A DNA stretch of 64,000 bases from Acidimicrobiales bacterium (GTDB lineage: Bacteria; Actinomycetota; Acidimicrobiia; Acidimicrobiales; Bin134), in NCBI GenBank assembly GCA_965208805.1, contig OZ242355.1:3744878-3808877 (forward strand), given 5' to 3'. Position numbers and translations under genes: made by a program. The first letter of the stretch is position 1; each line of letters begins with the position of its first letter. Shown here piece after piece: positions 4,184 to 63,450 of the stretch. Below the pieces are notes generated by a model that was not told where the DNA came from, made no database searches, and was given only the letters and a program-made list of their open reading frames with translations.

Positions 4184-4422
4184 TCCAGATACGCCTCTTC
4201 CAGTGCCTCATCGTGTTGGGTAGACGTGTCTACATGGCTAGAGCGGAAAGTTCCGGCGGCAGACATCAACCGCTGGTATCTCTCGCTGCGTTCGGCTCGT
4301 TCAAGCTGGGCATCGAGAGCCTCGCGAATGACCGCTGACTGAGACATTGCTCGAGCCGCCGCATGCTCGCGCAGTCGCTCTGCCTGCTCCTTCTTCAGTG
4401 AAATTTGAGTGCGAATCATCAT
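4180..4422 (-). CDS. vapB: Ribbon-helix-helix (CopG/VapB-type) antitoxin
   Basis: 80 aa. RTQISLKKEQAERLREHAAARAMSQSAVIREALD is a typical RHH pattern. The gene is translationally coupled to vapC. Confidence 0.75.
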   Translation of the reverse strand: MMIRTQISLKKEQAERLREHAAARAMSQSAVIREALDAQLERAERSERYQRLMSAAGTFRSSHVDTSTQHDEALEEAYLE

Positions 4423-5407: not shown

Positions 5408-5971
5408 TTAAGCGTGGAGCGCGGCGGCAACGGCTGTGGCATCCACGACGGACCTCGCATTACGCCTCAGTACCGCAAACTTGGTTAGGGGGCGGCGGGC
5501 TGGGTCTGCCTCCCGGTGTCGTCGTGCCACAACCAACATCTCGGCGATGTCAGTGTTCTCTGAGAAGCAGGTTCGGACAGGGTCGTGGCTGGCGATAATC
5601 CATTCGATGTGAAACCACTCGGCAAGGAGCTGACGGATGCCAGCAGCGGATGGAGCCGAGGATCCGGCGAGGGGAAACACGAATGCGAGCGTTGCCCCTT
5701 GGTCGAGCTTGGCGAGGTGTTCACCGAGGTCTATGAACATGGTACCCAGAGCGGTCGCGTCGGCAGACCTGTCACGGGCAAGCTGCTTTTCCCGCTTCCT
5801 AATGTAACCCCGCTCCTTGTTTCCCAACTGCTGATGACGCAGCGAGTGTTCGTAGTCGACAGAGCACCAGTCGGGGAGATACTCCTCAAGCAAATGACAT
5901 AGCCGCTGGTTGAGAAAGGTCTCAAGTTTGCTGCCTGTCCGCCCTGACAGGTGACCTGTCCGAGTTGCCAT
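5408..5971 (-). CDS. Hypothetical protein; resembles the post-catalytic segment of N6-adenine DNA methyltransferases, with no SAM-binding or NPPY motif present
   Basis: 187 aa. ATLAFVFPLAGSSAPSAAGIRQLLAEWFHIEWIIASHD...FSENTDIAEMLVVARR resembles the region that follows motif IV in gamma-class MTases. The N-terminal catalytic half is absent. Confidence 0.35.
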   Translation of the reverse strand: MATRTGHLSGRTGSKLETFLNQRLCHLLEEYLPDWCSVDYEHSLRHQQLGNKERGYIRKREKQLARDRSADATALGTMFIDLGEHLAKLDQGATLAFVFPLAGSSAPSAAGIRQLLAEWFHIEWIIASHDPVRTCFSENTDIAEMLVVARRHREADPARRPLTKFAVLRRNARSVVDATAVAAALHA

Positions 5972-9100: not shown

Positions 9101-9541
9101 ACAAGTTGGCATCTCCTCGCAGGGTTGCAGCTTCGCTATGAACGCGATGACGCCCAAGTCGACGCGGCGCAGACTTGGGATGCCCTCCTCGCCGATCCCA
9201 GCCGCACAGCCGTGACCCTAACCCTCATTGATCACTCGGACTCCAAGCATGAATTCGACGAAGGCCACCAGCTCGTACGGCGACGCACCCTACCTGATCG
9301 CCTAGCAAGCGACTACCCGAAGCCGATGCGGCAGCTACTCAGGTGGGTACTTGAGAACCCATCTGAAGTCGCCCTGGATGTCTATAAGCAGCGCAGAGTG
9401 GTGGCATTCGCCATTCGAACACTCGGTGAGACCGGCGACGAATCCAGTGCCAAAATACTGCACCCCTACACCCTTGACCCTGAGACCGGTGACATAGCCG
9501 TCGAAGCAATACGGCAGATACACAATCGAGCCGCCTCATAA
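6167..9541 (+). CDS. NERD (PD-(D/E)xK-like) nuclease domain fused to a NACHT/STAND P-loop NTPase and a long helical (HEAT-like) C-terminal region
   Basis: 1124 aa. NERD-like N-terminus (QIDLLVRTESRTAHVEIKGF ... NGNWAQV). Walker A AVVGPSGSGKSFLARHL. NACHT-type Walker B LTVVVDGLNEC. About 750 aa of helical repeats end in a HEAT-like IRTLGETGDESSAKILHPYTLDPETGDIAVEAIRQI. Confidence 0.7.
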   Translation: MNNTEIRLFVGDPVTNTAELNLINRLRSDLARHGISGTLYANFFTEARQSLQIDLLVRTESRTAHVEIKGFSAEHPIRGYRNGNWAQVLPGGKERTLGKNCGRQALSGTYTISDAMRSLAQAGVVTSAEGGFFRYIDSIVGIWERVPSGSDIDPPPHVTVTGYQELLERLRQPGPVVPWSDEEWDEFARHHSLFQLEETSPAEARRRDATAIVDDYRIRSRASLSNGLSPFISLEVSGPDVSSSDADGIGRWVADGRSAAVVGPSGSGKSFLARHLAVRHCDEGRMVIWIQASDYTMGEFRALLARALGSFSIERRSDLVDAASDAGVPLTVVVDGLNECPSKERDELLRQLQAFTLRHPAGMLITSTTQEGLGGTGPVDVFRLHEPDESTRVAILSSHGTRRPDLISSQFRIPHDLAIAAQCANEIGDSATVADLHDAFIRKHVPTEHLRAGLRALASHLHTTLRSSVALMEAVKVLSSPNLGLSAEQMDAVFGTALLKVNGHRIRFRHDLFGQHLAAEALVLASESGQGLGATLSVPANRALIPAALGIEKDGVQTWAALYELADPSLVAASLLGTYGPEMAQRAKDIVREALRAGIADTATGNASIRSIEPGTLKGVQEGFGHWATSGRRTESDQVLLVASGIALEMFIDEACELIDLTDELCQAQARRLKAEGIADAEHAVIRPTYSSTVFLARSGEELAATLLVRGLRESARFSPRSCEGKPRELARRFAEEAGPRSWGRYFAAILSIVPDDLDDQALVASLLKRAWDAGNLDLRLEALDMVRRIRCHAEIGEPHRSEIGRTLLSLEPGKFLAEHYRLDEELSAFGQIDNTTDSGRLRDEIRADIASSFNIDTARRIAAMQYDNQDICGPYREAIDGLEDREKAQLLATAASGDTRHTVFINLMIAQLVDIVPTGDHAIDETARAVFATHMICPHEDAFMEHEAIGAYLYAIRGWAKFERALPSQAGDPGSHRTSWHLLAGLQLRYERDDAQVDAAQTWDALLADPSRTAVTLTLIDHSDSKHEFDEGHQLVRRRTLPDRLASDYPKPMRQLLRWVLENPSEVALDVYKQRRVVAFAIRTLGETGDESSAKILHPYTLDPETGDIAVEAIRQIHNRAAS

Positions 9542-39470: not shown

Positions 39471-39719
39471 TCACCCCCCGATGAGGCTGGCGATGGCCCA
39501 GATCACGATCACCAGGCCCACCACGATCATCACCACGCTGCGCCCCACCTTCGGGGTCGCCCGTTCGTCGGGGGCACCCGGCGGGGGAGGGATGTCGGGC
39601 CGACCTGTCCGGCCCTTCCGAGGGCCGTCAGGATTGATCAGTGCGGCGATGTTCCCCACCGCCAGCGCACCCCCCAGCGCCAGCAACAAGAACGTGATGA
39701 TCTCCGGCCCGCCCAGCAC
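39471..39719 (-). CDS. Small two-TM membrane protein (hypothetical)
   Basis: 82 aa with hydrophobic N- and C-terminal segments flanking a Pro/Arg-rich loop. Confidence 0.45.
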   Translation of the reverse strand: MLGGPEIITFLLLALGGALAVGNIAALINPDGPRKGRTGRPDIPPPPGAPDERATPKVGRSVVMIVVGLVIVIWAIASLIGG

Positions 39720-39752
39720 CCTCCCAGTCTCGCGCCCCGTGCGCTGCGCCTC

Positions 39753-40322
39753 TTACATGGGGCGGTGCACCGACACGGCGTAGTCACCGCCCGCCCAGGG
39801 TCCTCGCTCCCAAGTCGAGTACCGCTCCGCCAGGGCCAATCCTGCTGCCTCGCAGTCGGCGTCATAACGATCCAGCCCATAGCCCCCGGCCCGCAGCTGG
39901 AACCCGGCCACCAGGGCACTGCCGGGGGAGAGGTGGGCGGCGCAGCGCCCCACCACCGCGGCCTCAGTGCCCGGCCCAGTGAACAGCAGCACGTTCCCCG
40001 CCATCACCACCGCGTCAAAGGTCTCGCCCAAATCAAAAGTCGACAAGTCAAGCTGATGCCATCCCAGCTCCGGCGCCTTGGCCCGAGCCCCGGAGATCAT
40101 CTCGTCGTCGATGTCCACCCCGGCCACGTCGTAACCCCGCCGGGCCAGCTCAATAGCCACCCGCCCCGTCCCGCACCCCGCATCAAGAACCCGCCCCGCC
40201 CCACCCAACAGCGAGTCCACAAAGTCAGCCTCCCCATGGGGGTTGTGCCCCTCCGCCTCCAACCGCTCCCACCGGGCGTCATAATCCCGCCCCGACATCC
40301 GCCCACCCCAAGTCGATCCCAC
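39753..40322 (-). CDS. Class I SAM-dependent methyltransferase
   Basis: 189 aa. Motif I VLDAGCGTGRVAIELARRG, then DVAGVDID. Confidence 0.85.
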   Translation of the reverse strand: MGSTWGGRMSGRDYDARWERLEAEGHNPHGEADFVDSLLGGAGRVLDAGCGTGRVAIELARRGYDVAGVDIDDEMISGARAKAPELGWHQLDLSTFDLGETFDAVVMAGNVLLFTGPGTEAAVVGRCAAHLSPGSALVAGFQLRAGGYGLDRYDADCEAAGLALAERYSTWERGPWAGGDYAVSVHRPM

Positions 40323-40393
40323 CCGCCGAGCATGTCACAGCCTTCCTAGGAAAGCGCACGAAGCTCCCGACCGATGCTCTGAGCAACGTAGAA

Positions 40394-41629
40394 TTGCCTC
40401 TAGTAAAGGTGGGGCGGTCTGGAATATTGTCGGCAGGCACCAGCCATGACGCTCAGGAAGGGGTATGCGTGGAGCGAGTTGAACCGGCGAGCTGTCTCAC
40501 CTCATGGAATCCAGATGGTTTGGCTCGGCTCGCCTCTCATCTGGCTGAAGCCGAAAGCAAAGGCTGTCCTTGCACACTTGACCTGTCCGATGAGGCTATT
40601 GCTGGCAGTTCTAGCCCCGCGGCAGTGCGACTCGATATCCCCTCGGTGATGGTCGCTGCCAATCTTCTGGTAGGACGATTTCAGGACCTGCCGGTGGAAG
40701 TGCAGCTTCCCTGTTCAAATGGACTCAACCTCCAATTGGCACGTGGTGGCCTTTTCTTTGCCTTGGCAAAGCGTGAAGGGAGGGTCGCCTGGTCAGGTGG
40801 TGCTCCAGAGGCGTGGGAGAAGGTCGCTCGAACTTGGATCCAGCCGTTTCACCCGAATGATGAGGCGATGTACCGGAATGCCTTGGTGGATGTCCGGGAC
40901 GTGGAGCGGGAACCCTGGGTTGTTCGTGCTGCGTTCCAACGGTATCTCCTCTCGGTAATCCATCCGCATCTCAGACCGGCGTACTCCCTACGCGCTGACC
41001 TTGATGAGATCGCGCAGAGATGGCTCAGCATGAGGCTGGACATCCCTCAGGGTTCCAAGCTTGTCAGCACTCTGAGGGACTGTGCAGCGATCTTCTATGA
41101 AATATGCGTGAACGTTCCCGACCATGCTGGTCTTGGTGGTAATTCCTCAGGAGTTTCGCTTGGCCAGATATACGTGACCCTCGGTGGAGGGCGCGACAGC
41201 TACAACCGGCTTCACATGTCAGTGGCGGACAACGGAGTCGGGCTGCCTCAGCGGGTGAACGAAAGGTACCCCAAGCTTATTCGGACCTCCGAGCAGGCTT
41301 TGTTGGACGCGATCATGGGCAATTTGCCTCGACGAGAGGCTGGCCGCGGTGTGGGCCTCGGCTTGGTCCGCGAGATCGCGGACCAATATGCCCAGGGTGA
41401 ACGTGATGTCGGTGGTCCTAGCAGCATCCACATCATCACCAATGGTGACGACGAGCACTCGACTTCTGAGATTCGCTGGGAAGCCGGTGCCGATCCCGCA
41501 GTAGCTGGGGTGAGGGATCTTCCAGTGCAAGGCACCCTCGTATGGGTCTGCTTGGGTCTCGAACGCAGAACTCCGTTTGACGACTACCACCAGGCCGAGT
41601 TGACCTTCGCCGAGCCGGTATTCGGGTAA
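40394..41629 (+). CDS. Stand-alone GHKL (histidine-kinase-type HATPase_c) ATPase with an uncharacterised N-terminal half
   Basis: 411 aa with a TTG start (start uncertain). N-box FYEICVNVPDHA, G1 VADNGVGLP and G2 GRGVGLGLVREI all lie in the C-terminal third. No TM segment or His-phosphoacceptor (DHp) motif was seen. Confidence 0.6.
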   Translation: MPLVKVGRSGILSAGTSHDAQEGVCVERVEPASCLTSWNPDGLARLASHLAEAESKGCPCTLDLSDEAIAGSSSPAAVRLDIPSVMVAANLLVGRFQDLPVEVQLPCSNGLNLQLARGGLFFALAKREGRVAWSGGAPEAWEKVARTWIQPFHPNDEAMYRNALVDVRDVEREPWVVRAAFQRYLLSVIHPHLRPAYSLRADLDEIAQRWLSMRLDIPQGSKLVSTLRDCAAIFYEICVNVPDHAGLGGNSSGVSLGQIYVTLGGGRDSYNRLHMSVADNGVGLPQRVNERYPKLIRTSEQALLDAIMGNLPRREAGRGVGLGLVREIADQYAQGERDVGGPSSIHIITNGDDEHSTSEIRWEAGADPAVAGVRDLPVQGTLVWVCLGLERRTPFDDYHQAELTFAEPVFG

Positions 41630-41639
41630 GCCCCAAAAT

Positions 41640-44168
41640 ATGGCGGACCGGACCGGAAGATATCTACGCGCCGACGTTGACCTCTCACCAGAGGAAATAT
41701 CTGGCGAAGAGCCGATTGTTTCCCATGATGACAGCGAGACACTTGATCTCACGTTCGTCGATCTGCATGTTCGCTCGCTCGCGGACCCAAGTGACAATTG
41801 GAGACGTGAGATCGAGAGGCTGACAAACGCCGTTCAGCATCGCTTGCAGCAGGTCTCTGCAATCGATCGGCTACTTTTCCGGTGGCCTTGGCTCGCTGGT
41901 CCCGATGACGATGACCATGCTGAAATGGTCGAACAATGGCTTGACCGTCTTCAGGAGGTCATCCCTGGAGCATCTGCTCCGATTGGGAATGCACACATCG
42001 GCGTGATCCAGCATCGGGTAGCTGGTGATCCTTTGCTGCATTGCGCTGGTGAGGCTCCGAGCCATGCCGAAGAAACCGCACTTCTTGCCCATGCCCGCGC
42101 CGTAGAGTTGCGGGCGCTACTGCGTCGCAGCAATGCCATTTGGGCACCCGACAGTTACCACTACCGGCTTCCCAGCGGAGAGCACACCGATGTTTTTGTC
42201 CGCATTGCTGATGCCATCCAGAGCCCAAGGGATGCCTATGTGATTTCTTGCTGGCTGACCGACCGGCTCTCCGAAGGCATCGGGATCGTGATTGATACAG
42301 GTGGCCTAACTCCCGTGTTGATCCAGATCGAGAGTTTTCTCGCTCGCTTTGGCCGAGAAATTGGTCCGACTGCCATCCTCGATTCGTACCCATCTGGTCG
42401 TGCAACGGTGCGCCGCACTGTCGAGAGGGCTACACGGCCGCTCGTGTCTCACGTTATGGGCATACAAACAGTCAGTTCGTCAGGAAATCTGCTGAGGACC
42501 TTCACCGACGAACTTGAGTGGGTGTCCGATTCCCGTGGTTTGAACTACACGCTTGATGTGTTAGTCAACCGGCAAGAGCAAGATGAAGACTGCACCAGGT
42601 TTTCTCCATGCGAAGAAGAGAGGACGGTCACATGGCTTGGGCTGGGGCAAGCCACCGAAGACAGATCGCCTGGTTCGTGCGAGTTATGCAGAGATCCCCA
42701 GAAGGCTCAATATGTTGCAGTCGACCCGAGAACGTACGGAGAGATGGCCCTCCCTGCCCCCCACCTAGTCATGCCTGACATTCGGTACGCAAGCGAAGCC
42801 CAACTGTTTTGGGAGCGGGTCGCCAGCCGTAAGGCACGGGCGATCGAAGCCAATCCCCACCCACGCAGTCGGGTCGCTAGGGGGAGGCAAGTCGCATTGC
42901 CAGTTCGCCCGATCTTCGAACTGATCGCCGAATCCGACGGTCTTCAGGAGATGGTTGAGCAGCGCTTGCGGCAGTTTGAGCCAGATGATGAAGCCATAGA
43001 GCGCATCAGGCGCACTGGCCTAGTCGTTGCCTCGGCCTATGACTTCGCAACCACGGAGCGGCCGAAAGCTGCTGGGGGAGGTGAGGCCGACCTCAAATCT
43101 GGCTTGCGTTCGGTGCTGAATGGCCTTGGCTTGGACCCCTCAGTGCCCATAGTGGCTGATGATGATCCAGCGCTGTCCAGCAAAATTGAAGAACTCAGTG
43201 GCGACGAGGCAGTCCTCCTGTTCTCGTGGGGATCGGTCACTGGGCTGACCCTGCGCCGTCTCAAGCTCTCCTTGGCCGATGCTCTTCAAAGTCAGCGTAG
43301 AAACCGGTCCGTGAACGGACTGGTGTTCCACAGTCGTCCCAGCACGCCTCAAGAGTGGACCGCGCTACAAAATCAATTTCGTCCAGATGTTCTGATGGAC
43401 CTCTGGACGAGCTGCTTTTCTTGGGAATCGCCGCTGGCCGATGAGCGTCGCTTGCTTGACCGCTCGGCACTTGATCCGAATCAACTAACTGCTTCAGCCC
43501 AATCATTTCTGGATCACCGAAAACGATTTCTGAATCTGCACCAAGACCACATGAACGCTGACGACGACTGGTCACCACGATTCGAGGCCGAGGGCGGTGC
43601 ACCCCACCCTGAACACATTTTTTGGGGGATGTCACACGACGGTCTTCATCAGCAGGAGGTTCGCGGTCGATCCCTGTACGGCAAAGACCTTGACTGCCTA
43701 ACCGCATACGCGGCCATCGGTGCCGTCGTTAACTTCACGAGACTCAACGAACGTCCCGAAGCGGCGCCTCGCTGGGTGGTGTTCGATCTCGGTCGGCTGG
43801 TGCGCTCCTACTTTGATGCCATCATCACCTGTTCCGTGATCCGATGGCTTCGACCGGGCGAGCTCTGGTGGGGGGCGGAAACAGATGACCCTGACTCGGT
43901 GCGTGATTCGGTGGCCTATCTTCTGGACCAGATCACCTATCGCACAGAAGGAGGGCAACTCGCCGACGGTGGGGTTGAAGAACAGGTGCTGCTTGTTCCC
44001 GAATTGCTGTTGGCGTGTGTACAGGGCAAAGTTCCCAAGAGTGCGCATAACCTCGTTTGCAGGAAGGCAAGAGAGATTTCAAATGGATGGCCGGACAATG
44101 AGTCCTTCAATCTCGCTCATGGCGCTGTTGATGTCGGTCTAGCCCTTCTGGAAGCCGACCAAACCTAG
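41640..44168 (+). CDS. Large uncharacterised protein with two degenerate phosphoribosyltransferase-like motifs and a CxxC element
   Basis: 842 aa, starting 10 bp after the GHKL gene. YRLPSGEHTDVFVRIADAI...GIGIVIDTGGLTPVL...VMGIQTVSSSGNLL resembles a type I PRTase core without the acidic pair. Also contains GSCELCRD and a second AVLLFSWGSVTGLTL. Confidence 0.5.
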   Translation: MADRTGRYLRADVDLSPEEISGEEPIVSHDDSETLDLTFVDLHVRSLADPSDNWRREIERLTNAVQHRLQQVSAIDRLLFRWPWLAGPDDDDHAEMVEQWLDRLQEVIPGASAPIGNAHIGVIQHRVAGDPLLHCAGEAPSHAEETALLAHARAVELRALLRRSNAIWAPDSYHYRLPSGEHTDVFVRIADAIQSPRDAYVISCWLTDRLSEGIGIVIDTGGLTPVLIQIESFLARFGREIGPTAILDSYPSGRATVRRTVERATRPLVSHVMGIQTVSSSGNLLRTFTDELEWVSDSRGLNYTLDVLVNRQEQDEDCTRFSPCEEERTVTWLGLGQATEDRSPGSCELCRDPQKAQYVAVDPRTYGEMALPAPHLVMPDIRYASEAQLFWERVASRKARAIEANPHPRSRVARGRQVALPVRPIFELIAESDGLQEMVEQRLRQFEPDDEAIERIRRTGLVVASAYDFATTERPKAAGGGEADLKSGLRSVLNGLGLDPSVPIVADDDPALSSKIEELSGDEAVLLFSWGSVTGLTLRRLKLSLADALQSQRRNRSVNGLVFHSRPSTPQEWTALQNQFRPDVLMDLWTSCFSWESPLADERRLLDRSALDPNQLTASAQSFLDHRKRFLNLHQDHMNADDDWSPRFEAEGGAPHPEHIFWGMSHDGLHQQEVRGRSLYGKDLDCLTAYAAIGAVVNFTRLNERPEAAPRWVVFDLGRLVRSYFDAIITCSVIRWLRPGELWWGAETDDPDSVRDSVAYLLDQITYRTEGGQLADGGVEEQVLLVPELLLACVQGKVPKSAHNLVCRKAREISNGWPDNESFNLAHGAVDVGLALLEADQT

Positions 44169-44249
44169 AAGCTGCAAGTTCCTGCACTAGCCCTAAGCCC
44201 TGCCTGACGCCTGCCAACGTCAGCCCACTGACCGGGACCAGCTTGCCGG

Positions 44250-44510
44250 TCATGGGGGTGGGGTGAGGTGAATGCCTTTCATGGGGGGAATATCGTCGTC
44301 GCCTTCGGCGAGTTTGATGGCAGCCCAGTCGCGCAAGACTGATTCCAGTTCGGCGAGAGCCTCTTCCTTGGATTCCCCGAATGCCCAAGGACCTTTAAGC
44401 CCAGAAATTGTCGCCACAACACCGTCGGGGTCCTGGATTTGCTCAACAGTGGCATAAGAGACAGCAGCCTCTGCCCATCGGTCGATTATCGCTTCCATCT
44501 GAACTCCCAC
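44250..44510 (-). CDS. hicB: HicB-family (UPF0150) antitoxin-like protein
   Basis: 86 aa (or 82 from ATG 44498). VATISGLKGPWAFGESKEEALAELESVLRDW is the typical HicB N-domain pattern. Confidence 0.65.
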   Translation of the reverse strand: MGVQMEAIIDRWAEAAVSYATVEQIQDPDGVVATISGLKGPWAFGESKEEALAELESVLRDWAAIKLAEGDDDIPPMKGIHLTPPP

Positions 44511-44537
44511 CCGCCGAGCTTGTCACATGCCGCTGAG

Positions 44538-45359
44538 ATGTCGCGGCAGCAACTGAATCCTATTGTAGTTGCGTTTTGGTTGCGATATCCTGGCGATGTG
44601 CTCTACCTCGAAGATCTGCTGGAAACGGATCTCTCCACCGCATCAGCAAGGGCCGCCCAGGAGATACCCGATATCGTCGCCGCGCTCGATCAACTCGTTC
44701 CGCGAGTCCAGAGCTCGCACAACTTGGCAACGGTTCGTCGATTCGACTCCTACATCGACATGGCTGCGCAATGGCTGGCCAACCTGCAAGCACGCCGGCC
44801 CGAGGCCCTTCCCCCTCGCTTCTTCCTGTATGAGCAGCTTCGGAAAACCACAGACACGCTGCCGTGGGTAATCCCATCAGCCGACGGGCTCGGGGTGGCC
44901 ACTGCGCTGGTCGACAAGTTGAGGGGTCTCGCCGGCGGGCTGCATCAGGAGTGCCTGCGGCCCCGCGACGATATTGACGAGTATTTCTTCTCTCGCTTCT
45001 GCAAGGCCCTAGCCCAAGCGCAACAGGACCAAGAGGGCAGCGAGCCATTGCGGCGGACTATGGAAATCCTCAATCTGTCGAAGAGCGATGTGGGCCACCT
45101 CATGGGAGTCAGCCGCCAGGCAGTCGACAAGTGGCTCCTCGCTGGTCCTCCCGCTGATCGAGCCCCGAAGATCGGCGCCATTGCCGAACTCGCCGCCATT
45201 CTTCGGTACCGCCTTCTCCCCGGCCTGCCCGAAGAAGTTGTGCGACGGCCAGCCGAAGCCTACGAAGGGCGCACCATGCTCGAGTTGATCGCCAACGACG
45301 AGCACGAATGGCTGCTGCAATCGACCAAGGACAGCTTCGACTTCAGCCGGGTCGCCTGA
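44538..45359 (+). CDS. Xre-type HTH antitoxin with a C-terminal MbcA/ParS (DUF2384-like) toxin-binding domain
   Basis: ATG at 44538 lies in track ORF 44439..45359. HTH LSKSDVGHLMGVSRQAVDKWLL. C-terminal RPAEAYEGRTMLELIANDEHEWLL. Sits immediately upstream of the RES gene. Confidence 0.7.
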   Translation: MSRQQLNPIVVAFWLRYPGDVLYLEDLLETDLSTASARAAQEIPDIVAALDQLVPRVQSSHNLATVRRFDSYIDMAAQWLANLQARRPEALPPRFFLYEQLRKTTDTLPWVIPSADGLGVATALVDKLRGLAGGLHQECLRPRDDIDEYFFSRFCKALAQAQQDQEGSEPLRRTMEILNLSKSDVGHLMGVSRQAVDKWLLAGPPADRAPKIGAIAELAAILRYRLLPGLPEEVVRRPAEAYEGRTMLELIANDEHEWLLQSTKDSFDFSRVA

Positions 45360-45361
45360 CC

Positions 45362-45871
45362 GTGCAAATCACTCCGATAGGCGGCCAGTATTTCCGCGTC
45401 GCCGACCCAGAGTGGGCCGACCCCCTCGACCCATCATTTTCGTCGCGTCCCCCTGGACAGCGATGGAACCCGCCGGGTATTCCCTGCCTCTACTTGAACC
45501 ACGATGTGGACACTGCCCGGGCCAACGTTCGCCGACTATTCGAAGGCTTGCCCTTCAGCCCTGAATCCCTTGACCCGGCCACCGCACCTCAACTCGTCGA
45601 GGTGAATATCCCCTCGGGACAAGCCGCCGACGCCCACACCCCCCAGGGTCTCGCCTCCATAGGCCTGCCCGCCTCCTACCCCTACGACGCCAATGGAGCC
45701 CTCGTCACCCACGAGATTTGCCAACCAATTGGCCAAGCCGCCTTCGACGCCAACCTCGACGGCATCGACTACCGCTCAGCCGCCCCCGGCGGTACCCGCG
45801 AGCTGGCCTGGTTCCCCCGCAGTTCTCAATCCACCCCAACATCACTCCGCCACTTCGACCAATGGTGGTAA
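45362..45871 (+). CDS. RES-domain toxin (MbcT/Res family)
   Basis: GTG at 45362 lies 3 nt after the antitoxin stop; the track ORF starts at 45308. Contains QRWNPPGIPCLYL and GIDYRSAA, which hold the R and S of the RES signature. Confidence 0.8.
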   Translation: MQITPIGGQYFRVADPEWADPLDPSFSSRPPGQRWNPPGIPCLYLNHDVDTARANVRRLFEGLPFSPESLDPATAPQLVEVNIPSGQAADAHTPQGLASIGLPASYPYDANGALVTHEICQPIGQAAFDANLDGIDYRSAAPGGTRELAWFPRSSQSTPTSLRHFDQWW

Positions 45872-45920
45872 CAAGAACCACCCGATAAGCGCTGTCACAG
45901 GGGGCCGGTAGTCTGACGCC

Positions 45921-48900
45921 GTGGCTTCCCCGATCCACGCTGAGCCCAGCGTGTTGGCCGACGTCGGCTTTGAATTCCACTCGGCGGTGGCGGCATGGTT
46001 CGAGCAGAGGTTTCCGGGTGGGCCGACGGAGGCGCAGGCCCAGGGGTGGCCGGCCATTGCGTCGGGCCAAGACACGCTGATCGCCGCGCCCACTGGGTCG
46101 GGCAAGACCCTGGCCGGGTTCCTCATCGCCATCGACAACCTCTACAAGCGCCACGCCCAAGGCCAAACGGTGGCCAAGGCCAGCCAGGTGGTGTACGTGT
46201 CGCCGCTCAAGGCGCTGGCCACCGACATCGCCGAGAACCTGGAGCGCCCCCTAGCCGAGATCGCCGAGATCGCCCGGGAACAAGGCCATGAGCCCCCGCC
46301 GCTCACGGTGGCGGTGCGCACCGGCGACACCCCGGCCCACACCCGGGCCGCCATGATCAAAAAGCCGGCCAACTTCGTGGTTACCACCCCCGAGTCGCTC
46401 TACCTGCTGGTGACCGCGGCCAAGAGCCGAGAGGTGCTGCGCACCGTGGAGACCGTGATCGTCGACGAGATCCACGCCACCGCCCGGGACAAGCGGGGCA
46501 GCCACCTGGCCCTCACCCTCGAGCGCCTTGAGCACGCCGCCGACGTCCGCCCCACCCGCATCGGCCTGTCGGCCACCCAGCACCCCATCGCCACCATCGC
46601 CGACCTGCTCACCGGCATCCCCAACCCCGAAGCGGCCCCCGGCAGCGGCTGCACTATCGTCGACACCGGCCACCAGCGCAACCTCGACATCGCCCTAGAG
46701 CTGATCGACGACGAGCTCGACGCCGTGGTCTCCCATGCCCAGATGGACCAAGTACTCGACCGCATGGCCACCCTCATCGGCGAGCACCACACCACCATCG
46801 TGTTCGTCAACACCCGCCGCATGTCCGAGCGCATCGCCCACCAGCTGGCCGAGCGGCTGGGTGACGATGCGGTGGCCGCCCACCACGGCTCTTTGTCCAC
46901 CGAGCGCCGCATCCGCACCGAGCACCGCCTGAGAGCCGGCGACCTCAAGGCCCTGGTGGCCACCGCGTCTCTGGAGCTGGGCATCGACATCGGCCCCGTG
47001 GAGCTGGTGTGCCAGGTGGGCTCCCCTCGCAGCATCGCCACCTTCCTCCAGCGGGTGGGCCGCTCCAACCACAGCCGCCACGGCACCCCCAAGGGCCGCC
47101 TTTGGCCCCTCACCCGAGACGAGCTCATCGAGTGCCTCGCCCTGCTTCACGCCGTGCAACAGGGCCAGCTCGACGCCGTCTGCCCCCCCGAGGCCCCGCT
47201 CGACATCCTGGTGCAGCAGCTCATCGCCGAGGCCGCCGCGGATGACAACCACACCACCGGCGATCTCTACGACATGTTCACCAAGGCCGCCCCCTACGCC
47301 AGCCTCACCAAAAACCAGTTCGACGAAGCCGTGCAGCAGGCCGCCAAAGGAGTGGTCACCGGCCGAGGCCCCCGGGGCGCCTACCTCCACCACGACTCCA
47401 TCAACCAGGAGGTGCGGGGCAAACGGGGCGCCCGCCTGGCCGCCCTCACCTCCGGCGGCGCCATCGGCGAGAACGGCGACTACCGGGTGGTGGCCGAGCC
47501 CGACGACACCTTCATCGGCACCGTCAACGAAGACTGGGCCGTGGAGTCGATGGCTGGCGACATCTTCCTGCTCGGCTCCCACTCCTGGCGCATCAAGCAG
47601 GTGGCCGCCGGCACCGTGCGGGTGATCGATGCCGGCGACGCCCCGCCCACCGTCCCCTTCTGGCTGGGCGAGGCCCCCGCCCGCACCGCCGAGCTCTCCC
47701 AGCAGGTGTCCGATCTGCGCGCCTATATATACAGCCTCCTCCCGCAAGCCCCGAACGCCGATCCCCTCGACACTGAAGCCTTAGAAGCTGGCGCCCTGGA
47801 AGCCGCCGCCGCACAGTTCGCCCAAGCCCACGACACCACCAACGAGATCGCCGAGCAGGCCGTGACCTACATCGCCGCGGCCCAAGCCACCCTCGGCACC
47901 GTCCCCACCCACGACAACATCGTGTTCGAGCGCTTCTTCGACGACACCGGCGGCCAGCAGCTCGTGGTGCACTCCCCCTACGGCGGGCGCATCAACCGGG
48001 CCTTCGGGCTGGCGCTGCGCAAGCGCCTCTGCCGCCGCTTCGACTTCGAGCTCCAGGCGGCGGCCAACGACAACGCCATCATCTTGTCGCTCGGCCCCCA
48101 CCACAGCTTCCCCCTCAGCGACGTCCCCCAGTTCCTGCACCCCGACTCGGTGGAAGAGGTGCTCACCCAGGCCGTGCTGGATTCGCCCATGTTCGCCGCC
48201 CGCTGGCGCTGGAACCTCAACCGGGCCCTGGTGGTGCTGCGCAGCCGGGGCGGAAAGTGCAACCCGCCCCCCATCCAGCGCATGGAGGCCGACGACATCA
48301 TGGCCGCGGTGTTCCCCGGCGCGGCGGCCTGCCAGGAAAACACAGCCGGCCCCATCGAAATCCCCGACCACCTCCTGGTGCGCCAAACCCTCCACGACAC
48401 CCTCCACGAAGCCCTCGACGTGGACGGCCTCCAACAGCTCCTCACCAACATCCGCTCCGGAGCGGTCCGCACCCACTTCTGCGACACCCCCGAGCCCTCC
48501 CCCCTCAGCCACGAGATAGTCAACGCCCGCCCCTACGCCTTCTTGGACGACGCCGAACTCGTCGACCGCCGCACCAACGCCGTAACCGTTCCCCGAGGCC
48601 TCCGTCCCCGAAGTGACCAACAACCCCCCACATTGGATGCTTCAACCCTCTCCCAAATCGCCCCCGACGCCATCACCCAAGTAATCGAAGAGATAACCCC
48701 CACCCCCCGAACCCCCGACGAACTCCACGACCTCCTAACCACACTGGTAGCCACCCGCCCCAACCCCGCCTGGCAAGACCTCTACAAACACCTCGAACAG
48801 AAGGGCCGAGTCCAAACCATCGAAAACCACGACCAAACCCCCTTCTGGACCACCACCGAGTTAGCCGCCCAAGCCCTAGACCCCGCCCAAGCCCAAGAAA

Positions 48901-50246: not shown

Positions 50247-50519
50247 CTATCGGTACACGTCTCGACGATGGCCCACTCGCAAGATCACGACCTCTCGTTT
50301 CGTCTCTTCAATCCCATATAGCACTCGGTAGGTGCCCCGCCTGGCGCTCCACAGCCCTTCAAGCTCGTTCCTCAGCGCCACGCCCACTCGCCGGGGATTC
50401 TCCAGCAATGGCCCAGTAATCAACTCGATCACGGCGGAGGCCACCGACTCGGGCAATTCGTTGGCGATTGCCTTGGCCGCCGGCCGGGCCACGACCAGCT
50501 CAAACGAAGAGTCGCTCAC
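50247..50519 (-). CDS. relE: RelE/ParE-family toxin
   Basis: 90 aa. RRGTYRVLYGIEETKREVVILRVGHRRDVYR is a canonical RelE/ParE C-terminus. Confidence 0.85.
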   Translation of the reverse strand: MSDSSFELVVARPAAKAIANELPESVASAVIELITGPLLENPRRVGVALRNELEGLWSARRGTYRVLYGIEETKREVVILRVGHRRDVYR

Positions 50520-50785
50520 GAGGGGCGCAGTGCCCTAACAGCCTCAACCCCGCGGACAACGTCGCCCTCCAGATAAGCGCGGTGTGCTTCGGCAAGCTGC
50601 GCCACCACCTCTTCGTCTCCCAGGATCTCCAAGGTCTCCTCAAGCGACTCGAGATCCTCGGGACTCACAAGCACCGCGGCTGGCGAGCCGTTGCGGGTGA
50701 TTACCACCCGTTCATGATGCGCATTCACCCGTTCGATGAACTCGGAGAACCGATCTCGCACTGTGCGCAACGACTCGCTTGACAT
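50516..50785 (-). CDS. phd: Phd/YefM-family antitoxin
   Basis: ATG at 50785 (MSSESLRTVRDRFSEFIERV...VVITRNGSPAAVLVSPEDLESLEETLEIL). 4-bp overlap with relE. Confidence 0.85.
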   Translation of the reverse strand: MSSESLRTVRDRFSEFIERVNAHHERVVITRNGSPAAVLVSPEDLESLEETLEILGDEEVVAQLAEAHRAYLEGDVVRGVEAVRALRPS

Positions 50786-50857
50786 GACCACAATTGTGCC
50801 ACACCGATTGCGAAAACACACCCCCTCTTCCAACTAGGTGGCTGAGCGCCCCACCCT

Positions 50858-62034: not shown

Positions 62035-63450
62035 GTGGGCCGCTACACCATCCACCAGATACCAGCGGAAGAAGTCACACCGATATCCAAGAACGCTTCC
62101 CGAAAGCTCGAACATCCCTCTGGGAGCTTCGCCGCCTACCATCCTGATCCGCTCCTGACTCCCGGTTTGGACACTCTTCCCCATTGGGAAAGTGCAGCCC
62201 GTGCCACTGAAGCGGAGATAAAGGAGTTCGAGCAACAGCACGGCGGCTCTGCTTCTCGTATCGGCTGGGTGCTCCAAAGGTCAGAGAGTATTGGTTCAAG
62301 CACCATCGAAGACGTGAACCCCTCTCTGCGGAGAGTGGCTAGGGCCGAGGCCGTCACCCGAAACGGCGGCGATCCCCACGACGATTCTGCCTACGAGGCT
62401 ATCGGGAACATCGCTGCCACCCGTCTCGCCGCCGAGATCGGGGATGAACAAAGGCCGATCACCTTGGATGATCTGTTCTCAATCCACTCCACGTTGATGG
62501 ACCATACGTCCAAGCCCGAAGTGGGCGGGCACCTTCGTCCGGGTTGGGTTCGCGTCGGTGGGGTGCTTGGTGGCTACCCTCCGCCCGCGTATGTCGCCCC
62601 GCCGGCTGAGGAAGTCCCTGAGTTGATGGACGACCTGCTGGAGTACATAAACACCACTAGCCATCATCCGGTAACCGCGGCCGCTGTCGCTCACGTCCAG
62701 TTCGAGTCAATCCACCCGTTCCGCGACGGGAATGGAAGAGCCGGCCGAGCTCTAGTCCAGACCATCCTCCGCAAAGGCGGGATGACGCGCTACACCACCC
62801 CACCGATCAGCGCGGTCCTCGCATTCGATCGCGACGAGTACATCGCTGCCCTCGACGCAACCCGCTTCGAAGGATCGGCAGGGTCACCCGATCAGGTGAA
62901 CTCGCTTGACCGGTGGGTATCGCTCTTTTCCTCCACTGCGGAAGCCTCCTGCGACTATGCAGAGGGACTCATAACACGGATTGACTCGGTTACCCGCAGG
63001 TGGGAAAAGATGCTCAAAAGCCGCAAGGGATCGGCTCCCCGAAAGATCGCTGAGCACTTGCCCGAGATGCCCGTGTTCACCGTCCAGGGCATGGCTGACC
63101 AATTGGGCATTCCTCTGCCAACTGCCTACCGAGCCACAGAACGGCTCACGGCCGCGGGAATAGTCGCGCCGGTTCGAGGCAAACAACGCGGCCGCGACCT
63201 ATTCGAGGCTCCCGACATTCTGGATGTCTTCAAGGCCAGAACAGAACAATCCGAGACGTTCGGCTTGGTCTTAGACGATCTGACCCCGCAGATAAGCGGC
63301 AGGGTTGCCTCAAGGGACGAGAAGGTCGCTGAAGCCATTCGTTTGCGCCGACAAGGCCGAACTCTCCAAGAGATCGGAAATGCGCTGGGAATGTCCATCT
63401 CCTGGGCTCAGATCGTTACCCAGGGTGTCAAGCGCGGAGGACCAGGGTAA
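62035..63450 (+). CDS. fic: Fic/DOC-family protein with C-terminal winged-helix and extra HTH regions
   Basis: 471 aa with a GTG start. Fic motif HPFRDGNGRAGRAL. N-terminal SSTIEDV (inhibitory-helix-like SxxxE). wHTH VQGMADQLGIPLPTAYRATERLTAAGIV. Terminal RQGRTLQEIGNALGMS. Confidence 0.85.
   Translation: MGRYTIHQIPAEEVTPISKNASRKLEHPSGSFAAYHPDPLLTPGLDTLPHWESAARATEAEIKEFEQQHGGSASRIGWVLQRSESIGSSTIEDVNPSLRRVARAEAVTRNGGDPHDDSAYEAIGNIAATRLAAEIGDEQRPITLDDLFSIHSTLMDHTSKPEVGGHLRPGWVRVGGVLGGYPPPAYVAPPAEEVPELMDDLLEYINTTSHHPVTAAAVAHVQFESIHPFRDGNGRAGRALVQTILRKGGMTRYTTPPISAVLAFDRDEYIAALDATRFEGSAGSPDQVNSLDRWVSLFSSTAEASCDYAEGLITRIDSVTRRWEKMLKSRKGSAPRKIAEHLPEMPVFTVQGMADQLGIPLPTAYRATERLTAAGIVAPVRGKQRGRDLFEAPDILDVFKARTEQSETFGLVLDDLTPQISGRVASRDEKVAEAIRLRRQGRTLQEIGNALGMSISWAQIVTQGVKRGGPG

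Follow-up and report, generated by a model that had tools for sequence, protein, structure and literature searches.

ShosTA, PsyrTA, type III retrons and Ophion all employ proteins of the phosphoribosyltransferase (PRTase) fold as effectors or toxins (PMC11961720). ShosTA combines the PRTase-pyrophosphatase toxin ShosT with the DprA-like antitoxin ShosA, and the toxicity of ShosT, which carries a canonical PRPP loop, requires its D331/D332 pair (PMC11961720). Histidine-kinase-type ATPases also occur in defence systems, as in Ambrosia (AbrB), and PADLOC includes candidate systems (PDC-x) described as unpublished and without published validation. Here we analyse a 64,000-nucleotide stretch of an Acidimicrobiales genome (contig OZ242355.1; hereafter the window), in which a gene for a GHKL-type ATP-binding protein (g1) precedes a gene for a large protein with PRTase-like domains (g2). 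Judged by sequence searches, the pair appears to match no described family.

A Conserved Gene Pair

Both open reading frames of the original prediction are present, 10 nt apart, and every motif quoted in it was located (Table 1); the start of g1, which had been taken as a 411-aa protein, was moved. Nearly all g1 homologs are 383–390 aa long, one (P0066, 386 aa) is 100% identical over 386 aa, with 65 more returned by the homolog search, and a Shine-Dalgarno-like stretch (AGGAAGGGG) lies 5 nt upstream of GTG 40469. This GTG is therefore most likely the true start. The two genes form one transcription unit.

Table 1. Features of the gene pair and its immediate surroundings (window coordinates).
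Feature	Position	Strand	Description
g1 ORF	40394–41629	+	411 aa, mechanical ORF from TTG 40394
g1, likely true form	40469–41629	+	386 aa, GTG start
g1 N-terminal alpha/beta domain	40469–40860	+	~aa 1–130, family-specific
g1 GHKL (Bergerat-fold) ATP-binding domain	41051–41566	+	~aa 195–366 of 386
g2	41640–44168	+	842-aa multidomain protein
g2 N-terminal beta-alpha domain	41640–42053	+	aa 1–138, conserved FVD41 and R81-WPW
g2 PRTase-like domain 1	42054–42647	+	aa 139–336, OPRTase-like
g2 linker	42648–42899	+	C347xxC350 pair (DNA 42678–42689), R414
g2 alpha/beta domain 2	42900–43439	+	aa 421–600
g2 C-terminal all-helical domain	43440–44168	+	aa 601–842, AF2 secondary structure
Left direct-repeat copy	40317–40339		23 nt, TCCCACCCGCCGAGCATGTCACA; overlaps 5' end of divergent methyltransferase gene
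Right direct-repeat copy	44505–44527		TCCCACCCGCCGAGCTTGTCACA; overlaps 5' end and RBS of HicB-like gene
UPF0150/HicB-like small gene	44250–44510	-	Pfam UPF0150, E 8.6e-12; probable ATG start 44498
Two-gene unit ending in RES-domain toxin gene	44528–45871	+	RES gene 45308–45871, E 2.2e-14

The association of g1 and g2 is not restricted to the window. All 14 intact Acidimicrobiia genome loci have g1 directly upstream of g2, and this arrangement recurs in all 12 metagenome loci with upstream DNA, in the Burkholderiales and Solirubrobacterales loci and in Mycobacterium marseillense. Conserved neighbourhood, on which the original prediction depended, was found in every assessable locus, down to ~30% (g2) and ~20% (g1) identity, in a sample comprising ~20 Acidimicrobiia, Solirubrobacterales, one Burkholderiales MAG, M. 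marseillense and 12 metagenome contigs. A profile search with g2 returned 658 cluster representatives at E ≤ 1e-3 (242 at E ≤ 1e-30), none of them annotated, and g2 is here the founding member of an unannotated family. The distribution of the pair is patchy across distant phyla, and the phage, plasmid and viral (IMG/VR) contigs searched hold no copy.

The GHKL-Type Protein g1

g1 is a soluble GHKL-type ATP-binding protein with a family-specific N-terminal domain. As had been proposed, there is no transmembrane segment, the maximal Kyte-Doolittle mean over 19 residues being 1.45 in g1 and 1.34 in g2. Pfam HATPase_c (E 5.6e-6; 27.2 bits for a cut-off of 26.4; residues 233–346 of the 411-aa form) and HATPase_c_2 (E 2.4e-3) match the protein, and the AF2 model (pLDDT 77.6, pTM 0.85) resembles the N-domains of Hsp90, TRAP1 and ParE (Foldseek E 1.6e-3 to 2e-2), so that the predicted GHKL fold is less strongly supported than the PRTase fold of g2. 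The N-box (EICVNVPDHA at residue 211), G1 box (DNGVG, 254) and G2 box (GRGVGLGL, 292; all in 386-aa numbering) follow the family patterns (E/Q)xxxN215xxDH219A, D254xGxG258 and GRG294xG296. Across 20 family sequences, down to ~20% identity, N215, D254 and G256 are invariant and H219, G258, G294 and G296 nearly so; to judge from these motifs, g1 appears to keep all ATP-binding residues of a histidine-kinase/anti-sigma-kinase-type GHKL domain. In most Acidimicrobiia members the N-box position -4 is occupied by Q, not E, and the catalytic competence of g1 is therefore uncertain.

Two earlier statements on g1 need qualification. The ATP site had been placed at the extreme C-terminus; the domain spans the C-terminal half (~195–366), which indeed leaves no room for an S5/transducer domain. 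The stated lack of a His-phosphoacceptor helix holds insofar as there is no canonical H-box/DHp position, but a nearly invariant H167 (NPH/HPH motif) does exist, 48 residues before the N-box Asn. Upstream, residues 10–110 of the N-terminal domain are modelled with a pLDDT of 84–95, with no match to the domain in Pfam, PDB or PADLOC. LARGG(L/F)xxALAxR is its best-kept stretch among distant homologs, family HMM positions 62–111 are the part that matches these homologs best, and G94, A98 and R102 are nearly invariant. A STAS identity was tried for this domain and found unsupported.

The Large Protein g2

Pfam and NCBIfam searches returned no match for g2, nor for any of 58 diverse relatives. Its motifs lie at residues 175 (YRLPSGEHTDVFVRIADAI), 216 (IVIDTGGLTPVL), 272 (VMGIQTVSSSGNLL), 346 (SCELCRD) and 524 (AVLLFSWGSVTGLTL). 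The PRTase-like core suggested by the original prediction was borne out by the AF2 model (pLDDT 82.1, pTM 0.62): Foldseek aligned domain 1 with the OPRTases 4ohc and 5hki from the PDB (E 8e-5 to 1.5e-4, probability 1.0), OPRTase and UMP synthase were returned from BFVD, and a PRTase fold is well supported by these modelled structures. A YHYRLPSGxH motif is the counterpart of the OPRTase motif FTLKSGRKS; hhalign placed it in register with what we take to be the E. coli PyrE sequence (E 0.12), and OPRTase 4paw gave a faint profile match at the same motif. DTGGLT occupies the PPi-loop position, and the acidic pair is missing from the PRPP-loop-like VMGIQ276T277VSSSG282. The motifs are spaced by 44 and 97 residues, the equivalent distances in PyrE presumably being 49 and 98. 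In 96 sequences, E156, H174, H182, W205 and G282 show no variation.

Domain 2 carries a second PRPP-loop-like stretch, VLLFS529W530GSVTG535LT, followed by GLVFH564SR566P, again without the acidic pair; in the AF2 model a beta-strand (524–531) leads into a helix (535–551), and G531, G535, H564 and R566 are nearly invariant. Domains 1 and 2 gave the best of 10 domain-pair hhalign comparisons within g2 (E 0.022), with the two loops aligned in register, which weakly suggests an internal duplication. By motif mapping, which draws on the pattern and spacing of the motifs and on predicted secondary structure, not on residue-level structural alignment, g2 has two PRPP-loop-like phosphate-binding motifs, both minus the catalytic acidic pair. 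The replacement noticed earlier in the first loop (Q276/T277) thus stands and has a parallel in the second (S529/W530).

The remaining parts of g2 are conserved as well. In the N-terminal domain, D41 and R81 hardly vary across the broad family; a g2 profile aligned its FVD with VVDID and its RWPW with RWGGEEF of the diguanylate cyclase 9p6j (E 0.15), a match absent when a broader g2 profile was searched, and the likeness to a degenerate GGDEF/palm domain is faint and unconfirmed. C347, C350 and R414 of the linker (pLDDT < 50 at 338–348 and 364–372) show almost no variation in the broad family, and the two cysteines might bind a metal. Conserved positions of the C-terminal domain are E602, R627, W662-G, S678, G681, R701, RSY724xD726, R735-W, E741xWW744G and E788LLLAxxxG796K797; searches against families and PDB sequences gave no significant match for this domain, and no recognisable effector domain was revealed in the pair.

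Mobility and Genomic Context

The pair has foreign codon usage, with GC3 values of 0.61 (g1) and 0.59 (g2) versus 0.85–0.92 in core genes, and the lower-GC patch noticed originally was recovered (GC 0.57–0.58 at 41–45 kb versus 0.66–0.70, about 0.68, in the flanks). A 23-nt direct repeat (family D2; copies 22/23 identical and spaced by 4188 nt) brackets the insertion. In locus L003 the same cassette is flanked by two copies of the homologous site, which form a perfect 37-mer repeat; the site is also present in L015 and L050, and in L012 a direct repeat of ~135 nt flanks the pair; most pair loci show no flanking repeats. Relative to L015, identity is 69% for g1 and 63% for g2 versus 89% for the flanking methyltransferase and Lhr, the cassette proteins diverging faster than their flanks. 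The pair is horizontally mobile and moves between genomic sites: at least 15 different, unrelated contexts hold it, and no single housekeeping operon does. Copies also decay. An IS element lies between g1 and g2 in L005, L017 is disrupted by IS elements (DDE_Tnp_1), g2 is truncated in L023, and only a C-terminal remnant of g2 is left in two loci: L045, where it adjoins a McrBC-like pair (read from translations), and L047, where its neighbours are a methylase and a tRNA-like stretch. Several species of one sub-clade share the pair in syntenic position (L008, L013, L016, L025, L054), so that stable inheritance is possible too.

The neighbours named earlier were partly confirmed: the HicB-like, RES and Lhr genes (Pfam) and ParE/Phd (50247–50833) are present, but the "Xre" gene (44439–45359) had no Pfam match at E ≤ 0.01 and no PDB sequence match, and Lhr (GC 0.70, 85–89% identical in relatives) is a conserved core neighbour outside the island. 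The HicB-like gene, for which no HicA partner was seen, sits within the repeat-bracketed segment and accompanies the pair only in the window lineage, on the same side in L003 and L015 and on the opposite side in L053, where the pair occupies the same locus as in the window. The two-gene RES unit is missing from this site in L003 and L015, whose lhr starts ~30 nt past the repeat; it is a separate insertion and belongs to the context, not to the pair.

About half of the pair contexts hold recognisable defence, toxin-antitoxin (TA) or mobile-element genes, a raw context count and not a formal enrichment. Besides the RES, HicB-like and ParE/Phd genes of the window, these include a DruE-like (Druantia-like) helicase 150 nt downstream of the pair (L006, E 3.5e-185), a type IIG restriction-modification (RM) gene (L007), a HerA-like protein (L012), AAA_21 and RloB pairs (L001, L027, L054; L027 also holds two DUF1156 genes, PIN TAs and SNF2-NOV_C), and an integrase with Tn3 and ISL3 (L055). 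About half of the contexts have no defence gene within 5–8 kb, and there the neighbours are Sdh/GH2, Moco genes, SurE/CN_hydrolase or, in Mycobacterium, a lipid-catabolism cluster; no metabolic neighbour recurs across contexts.

Possible Roles of the Pair

We tentatively favour, at slightly less than an even chance, a self-contained mobile two-gene conflict module of an undescribed kind, most likely anti-phage or abortive-infection and toxin-antitoxin-like. The pairing, the two predicted folds, the mobility and the lack of any named match in PADLOC v2, Pfam or NCBIfam agree with the original antiphage reading, whose functional part we still infer. The tandem pseudo-PRTase domains of g2 would sense nucleic acid or a ligand of the 5-phosphoribosyl or nucleotide type, on the model of the non-catalytic PRTase folds PyrR, PurR and ComFC. 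A growth-arresting output could come from the invariant cluster E156/H174/H182/D198/D219 or from the conserved C-terminal helical domain of g2, and ATP binding or phosphotransfer by g1 might keep g2 inactive or switch it on during infection.

The TA-like features could also be the whole story. As an addiction-type selfish module without a dedicated anti-phage role, g2 (or g1) would inhibit growth, its partner would neutralise it, and the pair would persist and spread through the cost of its loss. Strict two-gene autonomy, variable insertion sites, frequent pseudogenisation, the predominance of TA modules among the window-lineage neighbours and the PRTase toxins of the TA-like ShosTA and PsyrTA fit this picture, which we nonetheless find unlikely: TA components are typically much smaller and simpler than these proteins of 386 and 842 aa, plasmids, where addiction modules are common, yielded no copy, and the Druantia-like, RM and RloB/AAA_21 genes that adjoin the pair in independent contexts fit immunity at least equally well. 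Both readings could hold at once. Somewhat less probable again is a chromosomal regulatory or metabolic sensor with no role in genetic conflict, the GHKL kinase controlling a nucleotide- or PRPP-sensing pseudo-PRTase that adjusts a stress response or nucleotide metabolism. PyrR and PurR are textbook examples of non-catalytic PRTase folds that sense PRPP or nucleotides, metabolic genes alone surround the pair in several contexts, and the cross-species synteny of one sub-clade and the absence from phage, plasmid and viral collections would suit such a role; yet it sits poorly with a GC3 ~0.3 below that of core genes, bracketing direct repeats, at least 15 unrelated insertion sites without a repeated metabolic neighbour, IS-disrupted or truncated copies, divergence faster than that of the flanks and patchy spread over distant phyla.

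The direct repeats (23–37 nt and ~135 nt) bracket a cassette that has no integrase, and type II topoisomerases partner GHKL ATPases with Rossmann-like Toprim domains. The pair might be what moves or maintains a small integrative cassette, in one version a very divergent GHKL plus Toprim-like enzyme of the topoisomerase VI/VIII type moving the repeat-flanked element. We consider this highly improbable, as the structure searches with g2 returned PRTases at probability 1.0, its YxLxSG motif is OPRTase-specific and the Toprim E...DxD signature is missing, g1 has no transducer domain, Pfam, NCBIfam, PADLOC and profile searches gave no topoisomerase, 5Y-CAP or recombinase match, and most loci lack the repeats.

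Comparison with Known Systems

With the anti-sigma-factor Ser kinases SpoIIAB/RsbW and the CA domains of histidine kinases, defence-linked ones such as AbrB of Ambrosia included, g1 shares the (E/Q)xxxNxxxHA N-box, the DxGxG G1 and GxGxG G2 boxes, and matches to HATPase_c and HATPase_c_2. It differs from these kinases in having neither a HisKA/DHp domain nor a REC partner, in showing no detectable STAS partner or domain, in its unique conserved N-terminal domain and in the short distance of 48 residues from His167 to the N-box. Compared with orotate phosphoribosyltransferase (OPRTase; PyrE) and non-catalytic PRTase-fold sensors such as PyrR, PurR and ComFC, g2 matches in the fold of residues 139–336; it also has an N-terminal YxLxSG motif of the OPRTase type and, at the same spacing, phosphate loops rich in Gly/Ser/Thr, although Pfam Pribosyltran matches neither g2 nor the 58 relatives. 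As differences, the PRPP loops lack the acidic pair, OPRTases do not have the invariant H174 and H182, and the domain forms part of an 842-aa protein in which a second degenerate copy follows it.

Among defence-database models, the PADLOC candidate PDC-M65B alone has sequence similarity to g2, and apart from this weak partial match neither protein matched PADLOC v2. Domain 1 of g2 and its relatives align to positions 135–345 of the 763-position profile (E 5.5e-4 for g2, 1.8e-8 for the best of 10 relatives, 3 of the 10 without a match). Given the similar position in a similarly sized protein, the two may be distant sister families; g1-type proteins matched no PADLOC model, the PDC-M65B partner included.

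ShosTA and PsyrTA are two-gene TA-like defence modules of defence islands, with a type I PRTase fold in their large or toxic component (PMC11961720). The pair resembles them in its two-gene layout, in the fold of g2 and, in about half of its contexts, in its defence or mobile-element neighbours, although the PADLOC models of both systems match neither g1 nor g2. Where ShosT has D331/D332, g2 has Q276/T277 and S529/W530, which makes a ShosT-like PRPP-consuming mechanism unlikely. The partner is a GHKL ATP-binding protein in place of a DprA-like protein or RecQ-like helicase, and g2 is twice as large, joining tandem PRTase-like domains to a helical domain of unassigned fold.

Gene Order and Distribution of the Pair

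The two genes lie head to tail on the plus strand with a gap of 10 nt, as an ORF of 411 aa (gene 1, g1) followed by one of 842 aa (gene 2, g2), and both are present with all the motifs originally quoted for them, subject to small corrections. One of these concerns the length of g1: 411 aa holds for the ORF, and the true start is most likely the GTG at position 40469, which yields 386 aa, because homologs measure 383-390 aa, one of the database proteins shares 100% identity with g1 over 386 aa, and a purine-rich AGGAAGGGG stretch lies 5 nt upstream of this GTG in the window as well as in one relative. No hydrophobic stretch of either protein reaches the length of a membrane helix, as had been expected for g1. 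The lower-GC patch described in the original prediction is also real, with a GC content of 0.57-0.58 at 41-45 kb versus 0.66-0.70 on both flanks, and a GC3 of 0.61 (g1) and 0.59 (g2) versus 0.85-0.92 in the surrounding core genes; the region of the pair is compositionally foreign. A promoter and terminator scan of the cassette gave nothing above chance, and an Rfam scan of positions 39500-46500 (E<=1) gave no match.

Within Actinomycetota the pair is widespread (Acidimicrobiia, Solirubrobacterales, Mycobacterium), and at least one Burkholderiales MAG carries it. Gene 1 lies directly upstream of g2 in all of the 14 intact Acidimicrobiia loci from species-representative genomes and in further Acidimicrobiia contigs, and the same order is kept in Mycobacterium marseillense, in four genomes of Solirubrobacterales and one of Burkholderiales, whose g2 shows only ~30% identity, and in the metagenome contigs that include upstream DNA (12/12). 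No third gene is conserved alongside. An exhaustive profile search with g2 returned 658 cluster representatives at E<=1e-3 (242 at E<=1e-30), mostly of 750-900 aa, and every named member of the family is a "hypothetical protein". No relative of the pair was found by tblastn of plasmid and phage collections, nor by scans of IMG/VR with two alignments.

Features of the pair, its insertion contexts and its neighborhoods (L001 and similar labels denote related loci in other genomes or metagenome contigs that carry the pair or remnants of it)
Feature	Locus	Position	Strand	Remark
Gene 1, longest ORF	window	40394-41629	+	411 aa
Gene 1, preferred start	window	40469-41629	+	386 aa
Gene 2	window	41640-44168	+	842 aa
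Gene 2, N-terminal domain	window	41640-42053	+	aa 1-138
Direct repeat, 23 nt	window	40317-40339 and 44505-44527		22/23 identical; brackets g1, g2 and HicB-like gene
Direct repeat, ~135 nt	L012	7826-7959 and 12567-12699		80/87 plus 40/44 identical
RES-containing unit	window	44528-45900
Site lacking RES-containing unit	L003	4352-4400
Site lacking RES-containing unit	L015	12837-12870
ORF labelled Xre	window	44439-45359
HicB-like, RES, ParE/Phd	window			in or near the locus
ParE toxin and Phd/YefM antitoxin	window	50247-50833	-	just downstream of lhr
PIN toxin and ribbon-helix-helix antitoxin	window	3764-4422	-	edge of ~4-10 kb patch
Unannotated gene	window	4568-5359	-	adjoins NERD/STAND gene
Unannotated gene	window	5408-5971	-	adjoins NERD/STAND gene
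NERD/STAND gene	window	6167-9541	+	1124 aa
Fic/DOC gene	window	62035-63450	+	471 aa
AAA_21 and RloB	L001	3702-5659		few kb from pair
AAA_21 and RloB	L027	4609-6503		few kb from pair
AAA_21 and RloB	L054	12470-14433		few kb from pair
DruE-like helicase	L006			150 nt downstream of pair
Type IIG restriction-modification enzyme	L007
HerA-like ATPase	L012
Two DUF1156 genes, PIN modules, SNF2-NOV_C	L027
McrBC-like pair	L045			beside remnant; read from translations
Integrase and transposases	L055
Two genes following the pair	L010	13878-17496
Two genes following the pair	L011	12664-16273
Methyltransferase/lhr context	window, L050, L003, L015, L053
adh_short/formate-nitrite transporter context	L001
Sdh/GH2 context	L002
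SurE/CN_hydrolase context	L008, L013, L016, L025, L054
MoaA-MoaC/MoeA context	L026
Lipid-catabolism cluster (Mycobacterium) context	L051, L052
Integrase/Tn3/ISL3 island context	L055

Gene 1 Encodes a Predicted GHKL Protein

Judged by an N-box Asn, a G1 DxGxG and a G2 GxxGxG motif in this order, a HATPase_c match and a Bergerat fold, g1 can be assigned to the GHKL (Bergerat-fold) ATP-binding superfamily. In an alignment reaching down to ~20% identity, N215, D254 and G256 are invariant and G258, G294 and G296 nearly so, and the N-box N215 is accompanied by H219-A220, likewise invariant or nearly so. Since the N-box, G1 and G2 residues are kept throughout the family, ATP binding appears to be conserved; hydrolytic competence is uncertain, because the residue four positions before N215 is Q or E. 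The Pfam HATPase_c match lies just above the gathering cut-off (27.2 versus 26.4 bits, E 5.6e-6) and is shared by the upstream genes of distant loci, and HATPase_c_2, of the anti-sigma-kinase type, matches at E 2.4e-3; NCBIfam and PADLOC returned no match for g1. The best PDB matches found by Foldseek for an AlphaFold2 model built from 51 homologs (pLDDT 77.6, pTM 0.85) are the ATP-binding N-domains of Hsp90, TRAP1, ParE and GyrB, and the structural support for the Bergerat fold is modest, as E values are only 1.6e-3 to 2e-2. Profile searches of PDB sequences with narrow and broad g1 profiles gave nothing significant, and a third homology search with a broad alignment added only five distant proteins with no informative names or domains.

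In GHL ATPases of the MutL/MORC/GyrB type, the GHKL domain is immediately followed by a transducer domain of the S5 fold. The proposal that g1 is not of this type stands: its GHKL domain is C-terminal in all homologs, and the protein ends ~20 residues past the last GHKL strand (residues 368-386 have a pLDDT <50), leaving no room for a transducer. Sensor histidine kinases have a DHp/HisKA helix whose H-box phospho-acceptor His precedes the N-box by ~100 residues, and a cognate partner with a receiver domain. Pfam detects no HisKA in g1, and no REC gene occurs in any neighborhood examined; we therefore rejected a canonical two-component sensor histidine kinase. The only conserved His is the nearly invariant H167, which precedes N215 by 48 residues and sits in an NPH loop modelled with low confidence. 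The N-terminal ~130 residues were confidently modelled by AlphaFold2 as an alpha/beta domain, for which none of our searches returned a match; its best-conserved part in distant homologs is LARGG(L/F)xxALAxR. By eye, LDLSD...AGS...LLVGRF...LARGGLFF recalls SpoIIAA, and a STAS-like N-terminus was dropped after hhalign comparisons with SpoIIAA and RsbV sequences gave probabilities of 0.7% and 0.1%.

Gene 2 Contains Degenerate Phosphoribosyltransferase-Like Domains

The g2 protein has no match in Pfam (E<=1) or NCBIfam, and none of 58 diverse relatives matches Pfam at E<=0.01, Pribosyltran models included. An AlphaFold2 model from 54 homologs (pLDDT 82.1) is predicted to contain the alpha/beta fold of type I phosphoribosyltransferases (PRTases): its Foldseek PDB matches are the OPRTases 4ohc, 5hki, 4rv4 and 1opr (E 8e-5 to 2e-3, prob 1.0), and in BFVD, a library of viral structures, it retrieves OPRTase, UMP synthase and PRPP synthetase. 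In domain 1 (aa 139-336), an invariant YHYRLPSGxH falls in register with the OPRTase FTLKSGRKS motif, and Gly/Ser/Thr-rich loops follow it by 44 and 97 residues; the corresponding spacings in E. coli PyrE are 49 and 98. The PRPP loop of catalytic type I PRTases consists of four hydrophobic residues, two adjacent acidic residues and then xxTGxT. At this position g2 reads VMGI-Q276-T277-VSSSG (family consensus LL-S-V-SSSG), and domain 2 (aa ~421-600) shows a similar pattern, VLLF-S529-W530-GSVTGLT, followed by GLVFHSRP. The catalytic acidic pair is thus missing from both PRPP-loop-like motifs, which were mapped by motif pattern, spacing and predicted secondary structure and not by residue-level structural alignment. 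Among ten pairwise profile comparisons of five g2 segments, domain 1 versus domain 2 was the best and in register, albeit weak (E 0.022).

The linker between the two PRTase-like domains holds a CxxC, and the C-terminal domain is a helical stretch of 240 residues with many invariant charged and aromatic residues and no assignable fold. In the N-terminal domain, FVD41 and R81 are conserved. A faint match of this region to a diguanylate cyclase (E 0.15), with FVD~VVDID and RWPW~RWGGEEF in register, suggests a degenerate palm/GGDEF-like domain; the match is absent with a broader profile. PDB profile searches with narrow and broad profiles, pooled with those for g1, gave nothing significant, only faint OPRTase-motif, faint GGDEF and chance GroEL matches. 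An arrangement of the topoisomerase VI/VIII type (GHKL plus Toprim) was rejected, as the structural matches of g2 are PRTases, no Toprim signature is present and g1 has no transducer.

Insertion Sites, Mobility and Decay

The genes flanking the pair vary between lineages. In the window, a short direct repeat brackets the pair together with the HicB-like gene, and in Ca. Poriferisocius anaerobius (L003) a perfect 37-nt duplication surrounds the same three genes at the homologous site, its right copy abutting the lhr start; the repeat site was also found in L015 and L050. In L053 the HicB-like gene lies on the opposite side of the pair, and g1-g2 is therefore the moving unit. The RES-containing unit of the window is missing at L003 and L015, and therefore entered the same short divergent intergenic region in an event of its own. 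In related genomes, the methyltransferase/lhr intergenic region is a hotspot of insertion, holding g1-g2 and the HicB-like gene on either side of it, with the RES unit in the window only; the pair, the HicB-like gene and the RES module were each inserted there independently. A search of metagenomes for an "empty" methyltransferase/lhr site with a 21-nt pattern gave no match. An insertion bracketed by repeats occurs a second time, unrelated to the first, in L012, where it comprises the pair and one 130-aa minus-strand ORF.

Between the window and L015, which share the insertion site, identity is 89% for the methyltransferase and Lhr on the flanks versus 69% for g1 and 63% for g2, which points to fast evolution or to replacement of the cassette by recombination. 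Decaying copies were also found: a transposase separates g1 from g2 in L005, the pair is broken by multiple insertions in L017, g2 is truncated in L023, and only C-terminal g2 remnants are left in L045 and L047.

Genomic Neighborhood

In about 7 of ~15 distinct contexts, defense systems or mobile elements lie within 5-8 kb of the pair, the remainder being ordinary metabolic genes; the association with defense is suggestive and not a formal enrichment. AAA_21 and RloB genes recur beside the pair in three independent contexts and match AbiLi, AriA and PtuA-type models, and a pooled scan of 97 neighboring proteins also yielded RmrA, MADS components, CapP, AriA, PtuA and GajA-type ATPases.

The same two genes follow the pair in L010 and L011, one encoding a ~480-aa AAA_5/Mg_chelatase-like protein (faint matches) and the other a 678-aa protein with Mb0984/Rv0959-type domains. 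The ParE and Phd/YefM genes of the window also follow lhr in L053 and are therefore a conserved feature of this neighborhood. The "Xre" label of one ORF next to the pair was not confirmed by Pfam or by PDB sequence search. Elsewhere in the window, a lower-GC patch at ~4-10 kb contains a gene (GC3 0.67) whose product combines an N-terminal NERD domain (E 2.4e-4) with a STAND/AAA_16/NACHT-type NTPase (E 3e-6 to 8e-4) and looks like an Avs-like antiviral STAND protein; the PIN toxin (E 3.8e-10) and ribbon-helix-helix antitoxin (E 2.8e-8) genes lie at the edge of this patch. A Fic/DOC protein with C-terminal HTH domains is encoded in another patch, with a GC3 of 0.67.

Possible Function of the Pair

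The reading best supported by these data, which we hold with slightly less than even confidence, is that the pair forms a conflict module which is self-contained and mobile and probably serves defense. The original proposal of an antiphage or abortive-infection role is partly supported: what the data show is the anatomy, pairing, mobility and neighborhood, and what they leave to inference is the ligand, any enzymatic activity, the interaction and the phenotype. In such a module, the pseudo-PRTase domains of g2 would have a nucleotide, a phosphoribosyl compound or nucleic acid as their ligand, and the GHKL protein would use ATP to gate the activity of g2. The output would stem either from the helical domain at the C-terminus of g2 or from its invariant E156/H174/H182/D198/D219 cluster. 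More tentatively, g1-g2 could be the first example of a new family of immune systems in bacteria. A tandem pseudo-PRTase, re-purposed from nucleotide synthesis, would then sense a phosphoribosyl or nucleotide signal that infection generates or depletes; this sensor would be gated by a GHKL kinase or ATPase dedicated to it, and a new helical domain of unassigned fold would act as the effector.

A pure addiction or toxin-antitoxin module seems rather unlikely to us. That the pair is a chromosomal nucleotide-sensing regulator we regard as distinctly improbable, and that it is the machinery moving the cassette itself as scarcely credible. A part of the probability is given to none of these readings.

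If the pair is an immune or toxin-antitoxin-like module, it adds a type of system unseen by PADLOC v2, Pfam and NCBIfam, in lineages whose defense repertoires are poorly charted (sponge-associated Acidimicrobiia, soil Solirubrobacterales and mycobacteria). In that case, a GHKL protein whose N-terminal domain is new would gain a function, and PRTase folds would serve in immunity as non-catalytic sensors, as opposed to PRPP-consuming toxins such as ShosT. Through the homolog WP_145010395.1 of the cultivable M. marseillense, this hypothesis can be tested directly with mycobacteriophages. Should the pair not be defensive, the methyltransferase/lhr hotspot is still a clean case in nature of cassettes inserting where no integrase is resident. 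New two-gene candidates are common; what sets this one apart is that its family is sizeable and wholly unannotated, that synteny is strict, that its domains are combined in an unusual logic and that a cultivable host is available for testing.

Comparison with Known Systems

As originally supposed, the pair matches no named system in PADLOC v2, Pfam or NCBIfam, apart from a partial match to PDC-M65B, the PDC-x systems being unpublished PADLOC candidates. Domain 1 of g2 matches this model weakly (E 5.5e-4, profile positions 137-257 of 763; best E among g2 relatives 1.8e-8). PDC-M65 requires both of its models at full length, whereas only B is partly matched by g2 and g1 has no match; indeed, no g1-type protein matched any PADLOC v2 model at E<=1. 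Our literature search on PDC-M65 and on GHKL or HATPase with PRTase did not turn up this pair.

Effectors with a PRTase fold have been described for ShosTA, PsyrTA, type III retrons and Ophion. Type III retrons consist of an RT and a PRTase effector with an msr/msd ncRNA; here, in contrast, no RT occurs among the window neighbors or the Pfam-annotated neighborhoods, and Rfam detects no ncRNA at 39500-46500 (E<=1). In the ShosT defense toxin, exchange of the acidic pair (D331A/D332A) abolishes toxicity (PMC11961720), and since this pair is missing in g2, a ShosT-like catalytic mechanism is unlikely. The PADLOC models of ShosT/ShosA and PsyrT/PsyrA matched neither g1 and g2 nor 10 relatives of each, and the partner differs as well, being a GHKL protein and not a DprA-like protein or RecQ-like helicase as in ShosTA and PsyrTA. 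Unrecognized by current family and defense databases, the pair is new among the PRTase-bearing and GHKL-bearing conflict-type modules.
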